Source of the DNA: Escherichia coli | GTDB lineage: Bacteria; Pseudomonadota; Gammaproteobacteria; Enterobacterales; Enterobacteriaceae | Assembly: GCF_003018255.1 (NCBI RefSeq) | Contig: NZ_CP027440.1 | Length of the DNA stretch: 64,000 nucleotides | Direction: 5' to 3' (one strand) | In this document: piece by piece, positions 1 through 46,930 of the stretch | How positions within the stretch are numbered: the stretch's first letter is position 1 | Layout of the letters: each line of letters begins with the position of its first letter | Position numbers and translations under genes: made by a program | The notes under the pieces: model-generated | Seen by the model: the letters and a program-made list of their open reading frames with translations, nothing else | What the model was told of the DNA's origin: nothing | Database searches by the model: none

Positions 1-454
1 GAAAACAGAGCAATATGCGGTGCGTCCGCAGCAAATTAAATTTGAAGTGACTGAACATGCATTTCTTGATGTCGACAAAATGACGCCGATTATTCTGGCT
101 TTCCGCCAGGCTGGTTACGAAGTGGCAATTGATGATTTTGGTATTGGCTACTCTAACTTGCATAACCTTAAATCATTGAATGTCGATATTTTGAAAATCG
201 ACAAATCGTTTGTTGAGACGCTGACCACCCATAAAACCAGTCATTTGATTGCGGAACATATCATCGAGCTGGCGCACAGTCTGGGGTTAAAAACGATCGC
301 TGAAGGCGTCGAAACTGAGGAGCAGGTTAACTGGCTGCGCAAACGCGGCGTGCGCTATTGTCAGGGATGGTTCTTTGCGAAGGCGATGCCGCCGCAGGTG
401 TTTATGCAATGGATGGAGCAATTACCCGCGCGGGAGTTAACGCGCGGGCAATAA
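1..454 (+). CDS. pdeC: c-di-GMP phosphodiesterase, C-terminal EAL-domain fragment (5' end outside window)
   Basis: Open frame from window edge to stop at 454; translation has EAL-domain signatures (DDFGIGYSNL, KIDKSFV). Position upstream of soxS fits yjcC/pdeC. Confidence 0.8.
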   Translation, partial: KTEQYAVRPQQIKFEVTEHAFLDVDKMTPIILAFRQAGYEVAIDDFGIGYSNLHNLKSLNVDILKIDKSFVETLTTHKTSHLIAEHIIELAHSLGLKTIAEGVETEEQVNWLRKRGVRYCQGWFFAKAMPPQVFMQWMEQLPARELTRGQ

Positions 455-456
455 AA

Positions 457-780
457 CTACAGGCGGTGGCGATAATCGCTGGGAGTGCGATCAAACTGCC
501 GACGGAAAACGCGGGAGAAGGTCTGCTGAGAGACATAACCCAGGTCCATTGCGATATCAAAAATCGGACGCTCGGTGGTGCGCAACTCAACGGCGGCCAG
601 TAACAGGCGGCGTTGGCGAATGTAATCACCTAGTGTCTGATGCGTCACAGTACGGAACATCCGCTGTAAGTACCACTTTGAATAGCCTGATTTTTTTGCG
701 ACGACATCAATGTTAAGCGGCTGGTCAATATGCTCGTCAATCCATGCGATAAGATCCTGAATAATTTTCTGATGGGACAT
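457..780 (-). CDS. soxS: SoxS superoxide-response transcriptional activator (AraC/XylS family)
   Basis: 107-aa ORF recognised as SoxS; divergent from soxR with the SoxR operator between them. Confidence 0.95.
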   Translation of the reverse strand: MSHQKIIQDLIAWIDEHIDQPLNIDVVAKKSGYSKWYLQRMFRTVTHQTLGDYIRQRRLLLAAVELRTTERPIFDIAMDLGYVSQQTFSRVFRRQFDRTPSDYRHRL

Positions 781-836
781 AAATCTGCCTCTTTTCAGTG
801 TTCAGTTCGTTAATTCATCTGTTGGGGAGTATAATT

Positions 837-854
837 CCTCAAGTTAACTTGAGG
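837..854. promoter_or_regulatory. SoxR operator within the soxS promoter spacer
   Basis: Perfect 18-bp palindrome CCTCAAGTTAACTTGAGG between divergent soxS and soxR; matches the SoxR site as I recall it. Confidence 0.75.
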
Positions 855-865
855 TAAAGCGATTT

Positions 866-1330
866 ATGGAAAAGAAATTACCCCGCATTAAAGCGCTGCT
901 AACCCCCGGCGAAGTGGCAAAACGCAGCGGTGTGGCGGTATCGGCGCTGCATTTCTATGAAAGCAAAGGGTTGATTAGCAGTATCCGTAATAGTGGCAAT
1001 CAGCGGCGATATAAACGTGATGTGTTGCGATATGTCGCAATCATCAAAATTGCTCAGCGTATTGGCATTCCGCTGGCGACCATTCGTGAAGCATTTGGCG
1101 TGTTGCCCGAAGGGCATACATTAAGTGCGAAAGAGTGGAAACAGCTTTCGTCCCAATGGCGAGAAGAGTTGGATCGGCGCATTCATACCTTAGTGGCGCT
1201 GCGTGACGAGCTGGACGGATGTATTGGTTGTGGCTGCCTTTCGCGCAGTGATTGCCCATTGCGTAACCCGGGCGACCGCTTAGGAGAAGAAGGCACAGGC
1301 GCACGCTTGCTGGAAGATGAACAAAACTAA
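866..1330 (+). CDS. soxR: SoxR redox-sensing MerR-family regulator ([2Fe-2S])
   Basis: 154-aa ORF; N-terminal MerR-type HTH and C-terminal [12 protein letters not shown] cysteine cluster. Confidence 0.95.
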
Positions 1331-1355
1331 AGCGCCACAAGGGCGCTTTAGTTTG
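1323..1355. terminator. Bidirectional rho-independent terminator at soxR 3' end
   Basis: Inverted repeat AAACTAAAGCGCC..GGCGCTTTAGTTT straddling the soxR stop, with T-runs on both strands. Confidence 0.6.
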
Positions 1356-1465
1356 TTTTCCGGTCTTTGTCTTTCTCTCTATCCCGCTGGTACACAGGAG
1401 GGTTTCCCCCGACGTCAACACACCTCATTCGAGCACGTGGTGGAGGTTCCGGTTGGTGTTGATGC
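1325..1465 (-). ncRNA. ryjA: Candidate small RNA RyjA (convergent with soxR)
   Basis: Positional inference only: K-12 has a ~140-nt sRNA on the opposite strand ending at the soxR terminator. No sequence-intrinsic proof; boundaries approximate. Confidence 0.3.
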
Positions 1466-1875
1466 TTTAATTGTATGTCACCGGCGTTTCTTCGCCAGTG
1501 TAAAAGTACACTTTTTAGCCGCAATATTTTTGTCATCTCAGACGATTTTTTATCGCAATCCTGAACGGTATACGGCTCGATAACGCTGCAATCTTGCGCA
1601 TCGACGATAACGTTTGCGCATCAATTGCCTGGTTTTTCATCGTCAAGACAATAAAAGAGAAAAAAGCAGCAAACTTCGGTTGAAAAAGCCGCTATGATCG
1701 CCGGATAATCGTTTGCTTTTTTTACCACCCGTTTTGTATGCGCGGAGCTAAACGTTTGCTTTTTTGCGACGCACCAATTTGTCGCAAACCTGGAGCAGGA
1801 AGATAACGTTTCGCTGGCAGGGGATTGTCCGCCACGCATCTTGACGAAAATTAAACTCTCAGGGGATGTTTTCTT

Positions 1876-3225
1876 ATGTCTACGCCATCAGCGCGTACCG
1901 GCGGTTCACTCGACGCCTGGTTTAAAATTTCACAACGTGGAAGCACTGTCCGTCAGGAAGTGGTTGCCGGGTTAACAACATTTCTGGCGATGGTCTACTC
2001 GGTTATCGTCGTTCCAGGCATGTTGGGTAAAGCAGGCTTCCCGCCTGCGGCAGTTTTCGTTGCGACCTGTCTGGTTGCCGGACTCGGTTCTATCGTGATG
2101 GGTCTGTGGGCTAATCTGCCGTTGGCGATTGGTTGCGCCATCTCCCTGACGGCGTTTACCGCATTCAGTCTGGTGCTGGGGCAACATATTAGCGTACCTG
2201 TCGCGCTGGGTGCCGTGTTCCTGATGGGTGTGCTGTTTACGGTCATTTCTGCCACGGGTATCCGTAGCTGGATTTTGCGCAACTTGCCGCACGGTGTGGC
2301 GCACGGCACGGGGATTGGTATCGGTCTGTTCCTGCTGCTGATTGCTGCTAATGGTGTCGGTCTGGTGATTAAAAACCCACTTGATGGTCTGCCCGTCGCG
2401 CTGGGGGATTTCACGACCTTTCCGGTGATGATGTCGTTGGTGGGGCTGGCAGTGATTATCGGCCTGGAAAAACTGAAAGTCCCTGGTGGCATTCTGCTGA
2501 CCATTATCGGTATCTCAATTGTCGGTTTGATCTTCGATCCTAACGTCCATTTCTCCGGCGTTTTCGCCATGCCTTCATTGAGCGATGAAAACGGCAATTC
2601 ACTAATTGGCAGCCTGGACATTATGGGCGCGCTGAATCCTGTAGTCCTGCCAAGCGTTCTGGCGCTGGTGATGACGGCAGTATTTGATGCCACCGGAACT
2701 ATCCGTGCCGTCGCCGGCCAGGCGAACCTGCTGGATAAAGATGGGCAGATCATCGACGGCGGGAAAGCACTGACCACTGACTCCATGAGCAGCGTTTTCT
2801 CTGGCCTGGTGGGTGCAGCTCCGGCAGCGGTATACATCGAGTCTGCGGCGGGTACGGCGGCGGGCGGTAAAACCGGTTTGACGGCTATCACCGTTGGCGT
2901 GCTGTTCCTGCTGATTCTGTTCCTCTCTCCGCTCTCTTACCTCGTTCCGGGGTATGCAACGGCTCCGGCGCTGATGTACGTTGGCCTGCTGATGCTGAGT
3001 AACGTGGCGAAAATCGACTTTGCTGATTTTGTTGATGCGATGGCGGGTCTGGTTACGGCGGTATTCATCGTGCTGACCTGTAACATCGTAACAGGCATCA
3101 TGATCGGCTTCGCGACTCTGGTGATTGGTCGTCTGGTTTCCGGCGAATGGCGCAAGTTGAACATCGGTACGGTCGTTATCGCTGTGGCGCTGGTGACCTT
3201 CTATGCGGGTGGCTGGGCTATCTAA
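1876..3225 (+). CDS. ghxP: Guanine/hypoxanthine permease (NCS2/AzgA family)
   Basis: 449-aa polytopic membrane ORF; position after soxR matches yjcD/ghxP. Confidence 0.9.
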
Positions 3226-3375
3226 TCTTTCATATGATTCTGAAAACGGGTGGCAATGGCTGCCCGTTTTTATTTTCTCCGCACATTGTGTGAGCTTTTG
3301 CGATATTCTGAAAAAATGAGAATTCAGGCATAACGCCTTTCTCAGATCATAAAAAACATCGCAAACAGGGAACGC

Positions 3376-5025
3376 ATGGAAATCTTCTTCACCATACTGA
3401 TAATGACCCTCGTGGTCTCGCTGTCCGGGGTGGTCACTCGTGTCATGCCCTTTCAGATCCCGCTTCCGCTTATGCAAATCGCCATCGGTGCGCTACTGGC
3501 GTGGCCGACGTTTGGTTTGCATGTGGAGTTTGATCCTGAACTCTTTTTAGTCTTGTTTATCCCGCCGTTGCTGTTCGCTGATGGCTGGAAAACGCCGACC
3601 CGTGAATTTCTCGAACATGGTCGAGAGATTTTCGGCCTCGCGCTGGCGCTGGTGGTGGTCACCGTGGTCGGCATTGGCTTTCTTATTTACTGGGTGGTGC
3701 CGGGCATTCCGCTGATCCCCGCCTTTGCGCTGGCGGCGGTGCTTTCTCCGACCGATGCTGTGGCGCTCTCGGGGATTGTTGGCGAAGGGCGCATCCCGAA
3801 AAAAATCATGGGCATTTTGCAGGGCGAAGCGTTGATGAATGACGCCTCCGGTCTGGTGTCGTTGAAGTTTGCCGTGGCAGTGGCGATGGGGACGATGATC
3901 TTCACCGTCGGTGGTGCGACGGTCGAATTTATGAAAGTGGCCATTGGCGGTATTCTCGCCGGTTTTGTGGTGAGCTGGCTGTACGGTCGCTCGCTGCGAT
4001 TCCTCAGCCGCTGGGGCGGTGATGAACCCGCGACGCAGATCGTCCTGCTGTTCCTGCTGCCATTCGCTTCTTATCTGATTGCCGAACATATTGGCGTTTC
4101 CGGTATCCTCGCTGCGGTTGCCGCCGGGATGACCATCACCCGTTCCGGTGTGATGCGCCGTGCGCCGCTGGCAATGCGCCTGCGCGCAAACAGTACCTGG
4201 GCGATGCTGGAATTTGTCTTTAACGGCATGGTATTCCTGCTGTTAGGTCTGCAGCTGCCGGGTATTCTGGAGACGTCGCTGATGGCGGCAGAAATCGACC
4301 CTAACGTCGAAATCTGGATGCTGTTTACCGATATCATTCTGATTTATGCGGCGCTGATGCTGGTCCGTTTCGGCTGGCTGTGGACGATGAAAAAGTTCAG
4401 CAACCGCTTCCTGAAGAAGAAGCCGATGGAGTTTGGTTCGTGGACCACACGAGAAATCCTGATCGCGTCTTTCGCCGGGGTGCGTGGGGCGATCACTCTG
4501 GCTGGTGTGCTCTCAATCCCGCTGCTCTTGCCGGATGGTAACGTCTTCCCGGCGCGCTATGAGCTGGTGTTCCTGGCGGCTGGTGTCATTCTCTTCTCGC
4601 TGTTTGTCGGCGTGGTGATGTTGCCTATTCTGCTACAACACATTGAAGTCGCGGACCATTCGCAACAATTGAAAGAGGAACGTATTGCGCGAGCGGCAAC
4701 GGCAGAAGTGGCGATTGTGGCGATCCAGAAAATGGAGGAGCGTCTGGCGGCGGATACCGAAGAGAATATCGATAACCAGCTGCTCACAGAGGTTAGTTCT
4801 CGCGTCATTGGTAACCTGCGTCGTCGCGCCGATGGACGTAACGACGTTGAAAGTTCCGTGCAGGAAGAGAACCTTGAGCGTCGCTTCCGTCTGGCGGCAT
4901 TGCGTTCTGAACGTGCTGAACTGTACCACCTGCGCGCCACGCGGGAGATCAGTAACGAAACGCTGCAAAAATTACTGCACGATCTCGATTTGCTTGAAGC
5001 GTTGCTGATTGAAGAGAACCAATAA
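3376..5025 (+). CDS. yjcE: Putative Na+/H+ exchanger (CPA1 family)
   Basis: 549-aa ORF with N-terminal multi-TM domain and charged C-terminal tail. Confidence 0.85.
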   Translation: MEIFFTILIMTLVVSLSGVVTRVMPFQIPLPLMQIAIGALLAWPTFGLHVEFDPELFLVLFIPPLLFADGWKTPTREFLEHGREIFGLALALVVVTVVGIGFLIYWVVPGIPLIPAFALAAVLSPTDAVALSGIVGEGRIPKKIMGILQGEALMNDASGLVSLKFAVAVAMGTMIFTVGGATVEFMKVAIGGILAGFVVSWLYGRSLRFLSRWGGDEPATQIVLLFLLPFASYLIAEHIGVSGILAAVAAGMTITRSGVMRRAPLAMRLRANSTWAMLEFVFNGMVFLLLGLQLPGILETSLMAAEIDPNVEIWMLFTDIILIYAALMLVRFGWLWTMKKFSNRFLKKKPMEFGSWTTREILIASFAGVRGAITLAGVLSIPLLLPDGNVFPARYELVFLAAGVILFSLFVGVVMLPILLQHIEVADHSQQLKEERIARAATAEVAIVAIQKMEERLAADTEENIDNQLLTEVSSRVIGNLRRRADGRNDVESSVQEENLERRFRLAALRSERAELYHLRATREISNETLQKLLHDLDLLEALLIEENQ

Positions 5026-5043
5026 CGCTTTGGCGGTGTAATC

Positions 5044-5076
5044 GGTAAAAAGGTGCAGTACATCGCACCTTTTTAC
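5044..5076. terminator. Bidirectional hairpin terminator between convergent yjcE and actP
   Basis: GGTAAAAAGGTGC-AGTACATC-GCACCTTTTTACC: stem flanked by A-run and T-run. Confidence 0.65.
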
Positions 5077-5107
5077 CGTTGGTCAGGTGACCAGAGGCTA
5101 GTGGAGA

Positions 5108-7068
<1,961 letters not shown>

Positions 7069-46062: not shown

Positions 46063-46851
46063 TCAGGCAGCTTTCGCGTTCTCTTCAATGCGATTAATGC
46101 TGCGGTAGAGATGGTCAAAACGTTCGTTATCAAACAGTTGGCTGCTGCCGTCGTAAAAGACGTGCCCCTGACGCAGGGCGACGATGCGTTCGCAGTAGCG
46201 CAGGGCGTAATCCACCTGATGTAGCGTGACGACCACGGTGATGCCGTCGTTCTGGTTGATGTCGCGCAGGGTGTCCATCACGATGCGCGCCGATTCCGGG
46301 TCCAGCGAGGCGATGGGTTCGTCCGCCAGAATCACCTTCGCCTGCTGCATCAGCGCGCGGGCAATCGCCACACGCTGTTGCTGTCCGCCGGAGAGGGTGG
46401 AAACGCGCTGATGGGCAAAGTGCACCATGCCAACGCGGGTCAGCGCCTGTAACGCGCGCTGTTTCTGCTCGCGGGTGAAGTAGCTAAAACAGGTGCGCCA
46501 GAATGGCGTGCTGCCGAGCGCGCCAATCAGCACGTTCTCCAGTACGCTCAGGCGATTCACCAGGTTGAATTGTTGGAAGATGTAGCCGGTATTGGCGCGG
46601 CTTTTGCGGATATCGCGGGCCAGGCGGCCTTCGCGCTGGACTGTGCGGCCCAGCAGCTCGATATGGCTACCGGCAGATTTATCGCCGGTAATCAAACCGC
46701 TTAAGTGACGTAAAAGGGTGGATTTGCCGGAACCCGACGGCCCAAGCAGAGCCACCATTTCACCGTGATGAATGTTCAGATCAACCGCGTGCAGCGCCTG
46801 ATGCTGATTGAAGGTTTTGGCGAGCTTCTCGACACGGATAATCGTTTGCAT
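46063..46851 (-). CDS. phnC: Phosphonate ABC transporter ATPase
   Basis: 262-aa ORF with Walker [10 protein letters not shown] and LSGGQQQR signature. Confidence 0.92.
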
Positions 46852-46889
46852 GATGCAGCCTCCCTAAAAAAGTGGCTCCATCGTGGCGG

Positions 46890-46930
46890 ATTATTGTGAC
46901 GATTTTGTTAACTAAAAGTGACTAACGGAT
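46890..46930 (-). promoter_or_regulatory. Pho box (PhoB site) of the phnC promoter
   Basis: Minus-strand CGTTAGTCACTTTTAGTTAACAAAATCGTCACAAT, ~45-80 bp upstream of phnC; resembles the CTGTCAT-type pho box. Confidence 0.55.

Follow-up and report, generated by a model that had tools for sequence, protein, structure and literature searches.

A probable composite of PurR operators and a folded leader RNA upstream of ghxP in Escherichia coli

Four PurR-like motif copies between ryjA and ghxP

We analysed a 64-kb window of Escherichia coli DNA (contig NZ_CP027440.1 of assembly GCF_003018255.1) and concentrated on the spacer upstream of the guanine/hypoxanthine permease gene ghxP (yjcD). The first 5 kb of the window was the pdeC'-soxS-soxR-ryjA-ghxP-yjcE region, in which the open reading frames (ORFs) and the Rfam sraL match had offsets identical to those in K-12 MG1655. 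The annotated ghxP ORF occupied 1876-3225 on the plus strand (ATG at 1876), and an invariant TCAGGGGAT with the ghxP Shine-Dalgarno sequence preceded it at 1860-1868 on the same strand. The small RNA (sRNA) RyjA/SraL was encoded on the minus strand at 1323-1463 (Rfam RF01408, 153 bits), and the K-12 annotation places ryjA at an equal offset. The 412-bp spacer between ryjA and ghxP was found in 5,420 of 5,426 complete E. coli genomes. It was 100% identical to that of strain 104 and differed from that of K-12 by six single-nucleotide polymorphisms (SNPs), none of which fell within the four motif copies described below.

An earlier note on this DNA had reported four copies of a motif resembling the PurR operator upstream of ghxP, and all four were present on the plus strand where it had placed them. 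These copies are herein designated c1 (GATAACGTTTGC at 1606-1617; 16-mer ACGATAACGTTTGCGC at 1604-1619), c2 (GGATAATCGTTTGCTTTTTTT at 1703-1723; 16-mer GGATAATCGTTTGCTT at 1703-1718), c3 (AGCTAAACGTTTGCTTTTTT at 1746-1765; 16-mer AGCTAAACGTTTGCTT at 1746-1761) and c4 (AAGATAACGTTTCGCT at 1800-1815). The same note had described a core common to all four. The exact core, AACGTTTGC, occurred in c1 and c3 only, and the corresponding sequences were AATCGTTTGC in c2 and AACGTTTCGC in c4. Counted as plain strings in the whole window, neither the exact core (3 occurrences against 0.98 expected; 8 of 100 shuffles reached 3) nor the 12-mer with up to two mismatches (4 against 6.7 expected) was significant. 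Given that the bare string counts were not significant, a weight matrix was used instead. A log-odds PurR matrix was built from the 27 ChIP-chip (chromatin immunoprecipitation on microarrays) motifs in Table 1 of Cho 2011, with the yjcD site excluded, and both strands of the window were scanned (127,970 positions). The 27 training sites scored 12.2-24.9 bits, with a median of 20.3.

By this scoring, which the earlier note had proposed as a check, c3 ranked first in the window (19.0 bits), c1 second (18.4 bits), c2 eighth (11.2 bits) and c4 twenty-third (8.4 bits). All four copies lay inside 212 bp and the top site outside the cluster scored 13.1 bits. The clustering of the motif is far beyond chance. 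Both c1 and c3 lay within the score range of the sites validated in vivo and fitted the ACGNAAACGTTTGCNT palindrome. In E. coli, c2 scored below all 27 training sites; in species carrying AGATAAT (AGATAATCGTTTGCCT) it reached 14.1 bits. The remaining copy, c4, did not qualify as a PurR box by its score or by its conservation.

Control of ghxP by PurR, the c1 motif included, is already published and is textbook-level regulon knowledge; nothing is new there. The PurR motif that Cho 2011 gives for the ChIP-chip region ryjA/yjcD is c1, letter for letter, and the region itself (4,275,855-4,276,485) corresponds to 1229-1859 in the window, spanning all four copies. yjcD also belongs to the PurR regulon in RegPrecise, and adenine- and PurR-dependent repression of yjcD/ghxP has been described by Kozmin et al. 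2013 (citing DREAM5) and in the work on the PurR-1 iModulon. On the strength of this literature, PurR almost certainly represses ghxP through this region, and there is very little doubt that c1 is a real PurR operator. The 16-mers of c2 and c3 were not found in the main texts of the literature searched.

The ghxP promoter and its overlap with c2

The only sigma-70-like site in 1300-1950 consisted of TTGAAA at 1680-1685 and GATAAT at 1704-1709 on the plus strand, separated by 18 bp and scoring 10 of 12 in the promoter scan. Both hexamers were invariant in 81 sequences, and the 18-bp spacer was constant in length and variable in sequence across species. Transcription on the plus strand would start at 1715-1717, 6-8 nt past the -10 hexamer. 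Since covarying pairs of the leader RNA (see below) begin at 1736, transcription starts upstream of that position. Relative to the predicted start, the boxes are centred at about -104.5 (c1), -5.5 (c2) and +37.5 (c3).

Box c2 overlaps the -10 hexamer and the start, and its GATAA is the -10 hexamer. It is a weak PurR-like box with a good right half-site and a poor left one. The sequence CGTTTGC, which follows the -10 hexamer, was invariant in 79 of 80 species and is a perfect PurR right half-site.

Boxes c1, c2 and c3 are conserved across Enterobacteriaceae

The ghxP loci of 80 Enterobacteriaceae species were compared, which was the conservation check that the earlier note had suggested. Nearly unchanged copies of c1, c2 and c3 were found upstream of ghxP in 80/80, 79/80 and 80/80 species, respectively, whereas the sequence flanking them diverged strongly. 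As a PurR box, c4 was not conserved. Over 72 distinct leaders, the best PurR score in the c4 region had a median of -1.3 bits and a maximum of 9.7 bits, none of the 72 reached 12.2 bits, and a score of at least 8 bits was seen only in a handful of Escherichia and Citrobacter species. The reading of the copies as PurR sites therefore stands in part: c1 is a published motif, c3 is very likely and c2 plausible, and c4 drops out on these scores.

In two Erwinia species, the promoter, c2 and c3 were retained; c1 had been lost and a GST gene had been inserted upstream. Locus L089, from a bee-gut enterobacterium, retained c1 and c2, 99 bp apart, and had no c3. By this pattern of retained and missing boxes, the three behave as separable modules.

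Two further patterns were seen in the compared loci. In L087 and L088, where the encoded GhxP is 85% identical and the gene order is GST-ghxP-yjcE, the element at the c4 position, ACGGAAACGATTACGT (~1428-1443, -65 from the ATG), scored 17.5 bits on one strand and 16.2 bits on the other as a symmetric, strong PurR-type box, and the c3 equivalent was weak (10.9 bits). In this lineage, the partner strand of the RNA helix described below may have taken over as operator. Insertions between c2 and c3 were found in Klebsiella, Raoultella, Kluyvera, Siccibacter, Pseudocitrobacter and some Enterobacter (loci L029, L032, L034, L044, L047, L049, L053, L055-L058, L075 and L078), where the distance increased from 42-46 bp to 78-156 bp. 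They lay between the start region and c3, so that the leader was lengthened and c3 and the RNA helices were left undisturbed.

The distance between c1 and c2 is fixed

The centres of c1 and c2 were exactly 99 bp apart in 79 of 79 species. In contrast, the spacing of c2 and c3 took 16 values (42-156 bp) in the same genomes, and that of c3 and the ATG took 20. The segment from c1 to the -35 hexamer (1620-1679) was fixed in length and variable in sequence, with phased A/T tracts, and conservation was poor at 1620-1660. Only G1627 and C1641, 14 bp apart, were invariant in this spacer; an A at +4 and a T at +10 of the element were conserved. The G1627/C1641 element fits GNNNAWWWWWTNNNC, which we take to be the Fis consensus, and its centre would lie at about -82 from the start. 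In 77 distinct sequences, the periodicity of A/T (WW) dinucleotides over 1620-1702 peaked at 10-10.5 bp, with z-scores that are inflated by the relatedness of the sequences. This periodicity suggests intrinsically bent DNA. A coding explanation of the c1-c2 spacer was discarded, as no frame was open across it in most species.

Judged from sequence, the spacing and the phasing point to a geometry-dependent upstream complex. Possibly c1 cooperates with the promoter-proximal site over bent DNA, or PurR at c1 interferes with an upstream activator. A parallel is the repressosome of the gal operon, in which GalR dimers at OE and OI, ~113 bp apart, form a loop with HU. Both systems have a dimeric repressor of the LacI/GalR family, two operators that flank a promoter at about 100 bp from each other, and bendable DNA in between. 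They differ in that looping, HU dependence and cooperativity are not known features of PurR, and the spacing and phasing at ghxP are only suggestive of them.

Upstream of c1, an TTGCGCAT block at 1594-1601 (plus strand) was at least 90% conserved in the 80 species; it repeats the right end of c1 in direct orientation at a distance of exactly 20 bp. The larger block at 1584-1601 (consensus TGTTGC-N4-ATTGCGCAT) had no score as a PurR box and may be the site of another regulator.

The ghxP leader carries a conserved RNA structure that includes c3 and c4

In the minimum-free-energy fold of the E. coli leader, the RNA of c3 (1746-1756) paired with that of c4 (1805-1815). RNAalifold on the 72 distinct leaders gave a covarying helix (AUGC at ~1738-1741 with GCAU at ~1836-1839) and a covarying hairpin at 1764-1787. 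The full model comprised four helices with 31 pairs at 1736-1841, all on the plus strand. In P1, GUAUGCG (1736-1742) paired with CGCAUCU (1835-1841), and 6 of 7 pairs had changed on both sides. P1b joined 1746-1756, the left part of the transcribed c3, to 1805-1815, the 3' part of c4, and was 90% paired. P2 was a hairpin with a pyrimidine-rich loop at 1763-1788 (1763-1770 with 1781-1788) in which 7 of 8 pairs had changed on both sides, one of them with counts of CG 29, UA 22 and UG 19. P3 was a hairpin at 1820-1832 (1820-1824 with 1828-1832), with 92% of cells paired and 2 of 5 pairs changed on both sides.

The four-helix model was tested against partners slid by 1-3 columns and against 500 shuffles. 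In the model, 91.5% of cells were paired, compared with 30-52% in the slid controls. Changes on both sides were seen in 17 of the 31 pairs, compared with 8.9 +/- 1.7 in the shuffles, and none of the 500 shuffles reached the observed value on any of five measures. On the tree of ghxP coding sequences, the covarying pairs had changed many times independently. There were 179 G.U cells and 39 A.C cells, and this excess of G.U places the structure on the ghxP sense strand. P1b was mostly frozen because c3 is also constrained as a DNA operator; the one pair that varied freely (alignment columns 37:110) was UA in 31 leaders, CG in 24, UG in 12 and other in 5. In the lineage with the 85%-identical GhxP, the c3 equivalent AGCUAAUCGUUUGC paired with ACGGAAACGAUUACGU through a compensatory AAUCG:CGAUU, and the fold scored z = -3.3 against shuffles.

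A covariance model built from 69 leaders recovered 1724-1847 as the sole locus in the window (120 bits). Left-out sequences scored 34-99 bits, and one Erwinia leader was weak (16.6 bits). No Rfam 15 family matched the plus strand of 1690-1900, even at E <= 10, and the search of 1-6000 gave sraL only. We are highly confident that the leader structure is real. Within it, c4 is quite probably the RNA pairing partner of c3 and not an operator. Its likeness to the motif has a simple origin: c3 is a near-palindromic operator, and the reverse complement of such an operator resembles an operator.

As to what the leader does, we lean towards a static element acting on mRNA stability, translation or protein binding rather than a switch, because no conserved alternative fold, terminator or demonstrable sequestering of the Shine-Dalgarno sequence was found. 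The search for switch-like folds gave no covarying competitor of P1, P1b or P3. We also considered whether the CCCC loop of P2 acts as an anti-Shine-Dalgarno by pairing with the invariant AGGGG; the loop was CUGC in one clade without compensation, and the Shine-Dalgarno sequence never varied. It is possible, and we put this forward tentatively, that the leader at ~1724-1847 is an undescribed cis-regulatory RNA of Enterobacteriaceae and Erwiniaceae that adds post-transcriptional control, such as metabolite sensing or protein binding. In that case c3 would have two uses, the repressor binding it as DNA and the leader folding with it as RNA.

The purine riboswitches of Bacillus (xpt-pbuX, pbuG) resemble the ghxP leader: a guanine/hypoxanthine permease gene is preceded by a multi-helix leader in which unpaired nucleotides of the junction are conserved. 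Unlike them, the ghxP leader gave no Rfam match, no terminator and no alternative fold sequestering the Shine-Dalgarno sequence, and one of its helices is partly made from a repressor operator.

Several related candidates were also considered. A 22-codon upstream ORF running from ATG 1738 to TAA 1804 (1738-1806), through c3 into c4, is probably no leader peptide, because Enterobacter (GTAAGCG) and Kluyvera (GTCTGCG) have lost this start codon. Two conserved GGA stretches, at 1793-1804 (ACAGGGAGAU in the family consensus, GCAGGAAGAU in E. coli) and at 1859-1870 (CAGGGGAUGU, with the Shine-Dalgarno sequence), are CsrA-like, resembling the CsrA binding consensus ACARGGAUGU. A literature search linking yjcD to an sRNA or Hfq, to CsrA or to a riboswitch found nothing relevant. 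The paralog ghxQ, which follows a 35-bp gap in the xanQ-guaD-ghxQ operon, gave no match to the covariance model. A GhxP-like match in Serratia was set aside as of the ghxQ type, since it lies after a guanine deaminase gene and lacks PurR boxes.

T-runs and the sRNA gene

The earlier note had observed that two of the copies are followed by T-runs, and these proved to be c2 and c3. T-run 1 (1717-1723, plus strand) would be an initially transcribed U-run; it was five or more T long in 39 of the 79 species. T-run 2 (1760-1765, plus strand) reached that length in 61 of 72 species and lies at the base of P2, its last U residues pairing with A1786-1788. The terminator scan of 1300-1950 found only the sraL/soxR terminator at 1324-1354 and none at either T-run. 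The proposal that the copies belong to terminator or attenuator structures of the convergent sRNA was thus not borne out. Since RyjA/SraL runs on the minus strand through 1323-1463 and terminates at 1324-1354, the motifs lie upstream of the sRNA promoter, at least 140 bp from the sraL 5' end and outside both the sRNA gene and its terminator. What does hold is that RNA structure is involved, in the ghxP leader itself and not in the sRNA.

UTP-sensitive reiterative transcription at T-run 1 was also considered and is unlikely, as the run is kept in only 39 of 79 species. The sraL/RyjA gene and the 3' end of soxR have 8 nt in common (1323-1330). A hairpin of 13 bp at 1324-1354, which scores as the sraL terminator, spans the soxR stop and likely works in both directions.

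Discussion

The cluster upstream of ghxP is probably a composite of two layers of control, DNA operators and a folded leader RNA. PurR bound to hypoxanthine or guanine would repress the sigma-70 promoter of ghxP through up to three operators. The strong distal site, c1, would act from 99 bp upstream of c2 across DNA with phased A/T tracts. PurR on c2 would exclude RNA polymerase from the -10 hexamer and the start; whether c2 is such a weak operator we consider evenly balanced. Located ~30-45 nt into the transcribed region, c3 is very probably a real operator that acts downstream of the start, presumably as a roadblock like the PurR sites of purB and purR. Cho 2011 reports that those sites lie inside the ORF and that elongation is blocked there; purR (with two operators) and purB share with ghxP the downstream position that suggests a block of elongation at c3. 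The leader RNA would fold into P1, P1b, P2 and P3, with P1b formed by the left half and centre of c3 paired with c4. Box occupancy, the steric and roadblock mechanisms, the role of the 99-bp spacing and the action of the leader RNA are what we infer from these patterns.

The ghxP operators are like those of the pur regulon in being 16-bp imperfect palindromes around a central CG, in mediating hypoxanthine- or guanine-dependent repression and in serving a purine-related gene. They differ in that ghxP has up to three sites, that its distal site is locked 99 bp from the promoter-proximal one, and that one operator doubles as a strand of a conserved mRNA helix. This three-position layout with its locked spacing, the reassignment of c4 and the unannotated leader RNA structure are new here.

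Some points weigh against the two-layer interpretation. A ChIP-chip region of 630 bp is too coarse to separate PurR occupancy of c1, c2 and c3. The start site, and with it the positions of the boxes relative to +1, is predicted from the promoter hexamers. In E. coli, c2 lies below every training site, and its conservation could be promoter or discriminator constraint alone. PurR is a dimer for which we know of no tetramerisation or looping, and a loop between c1 and c2 would be without precedent. Only 2 of the 11 P1b pairs covary, and the E. coli leader taken alone folds no better than shuffles (z = -0.37). In addition, a computational regulon reconstruction (PMC4576408; BMC Bioinformatics 2015) predicted c4 as an extra PurR site of yjcD at -76.

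That prediction concerns the same 16-mer as c4, and it is the starting point for the view that all four copies are PurR operators, a dense array that tightens repression of the permease gene. The rank of c4, 23 of 127,970, and the 17.5-bit box at the c4 position in the distant lineage agree with this view. Against it, the c4 region scored a median of -1.3 and at most 9.7 bits over 72 species, and the weakest ChIP site scored 12.2 bits; what is conserved in c4 is its complementarity to c3, including G.U wobbles and C-G/U-A exchanges, which is an RNA-level signature. Operators at all four copies are therefore improbable, and, differing from the published call, we keep c4 as the RNA complement of c3 and not as a PurR box. 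A more serious competitor, though still somewhat unlikely, is that only c1 and c3 are PurR sites. In this alternative, c2 is promoter sequence (-10 hexamer and discriminator), the 99 bp reflect a series of sites of other proteins from c1 to the -35 hexamer, such as the Fis-like element at 1627-1641 and an UP element, and PurR bound to c1 would act by keeping an activator from working upstream. The score of c2 under all training sites in E. coli is consistent with it, as are the fit of the invariant G1627 and C1641 to the presumed Fis consensus and the A-rich tract immediately upstream of the -35 hexamer. However, the invariant CGTTTGC is a perfect PurR right half-site in a stretch that promoters seldom constrain, and the c2 form AGATAATCGTTTGCCT, present in many species, lies with its 14.1 bits inside the ChIP-validated range.

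The two other explanations fared worse. Under one of them, c2 and c3 with their T-runs are intrinsic terminators or attenuators of RyjA/SraL or of the ghxP leader. Each is indeed followed by 6-7 T, and in RNAalifold a short hairpin, GCGGA:UUUGC, is possible immediately ahead of T-run 2; but that hairpin contains only two G-C pairs, showed no covariation at all and would form at the expense of the covarying P1b. The scan of 1700-1770 was empty on both strands, T-run 1 sits at the predicted start and is kept in half of the species, and T-run 2 precedes the hairpin P2 instead of following it. SraL, for its part, reaches no further than 1463, and its terminator (1324-1354) is at the opposite side of the gene. 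We regard termination or attenuation here as highly improbable. Neutral leftovers of a local duplication in the intergenic region, which the direct copies with shared GATAA flanks in E. coli might suggest, are scarcely credible, as the conservation data already contradict them: the boxes are near-invariant across genera while their flanks diverge, and all six SNPs relative to K-12 lie outside the boxes. Moreover, only Escherichia and Salmonella have the GATAA flank at c4, and the GATAA at c2 belongs to the -10 hexamer.

If the composite of operators and leader RNA is correct, the published PurR site c4 finds a better explanation as the strand complementary in RNA to a palindromic operator, and regulon reconstruction from motifs would face this trap in general. 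Toxic and mutagenic purine analogues enter mainly through GhxP, and an additional control of its expression would be of practical interest if the leader holds. A fixed 99-bp spacing between operator and promoter is hard to explain for a dimeric repressor; if it is real, higher-order PurR complexes are directly testable.

Additional observations

Elsewhere in the window, GGATAATCGTTTGCAT at 46836-46851, between yjdN and phnC, is near-identical to c2 (11.6 bits), and the leader covariance model gave a weak partial match at 46840-46904 (E = 0.085). This coincidence is probably due to chance. Among the compared loci, ghxP and its upstream region in L001 (JAEWQV010000038.1; a contig of 2.9 kb named 'MAG: Bacillota bacterium') were 100% identical to E. 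coli, and the Bacillota label almost certainly reflects contamination or a binning error.

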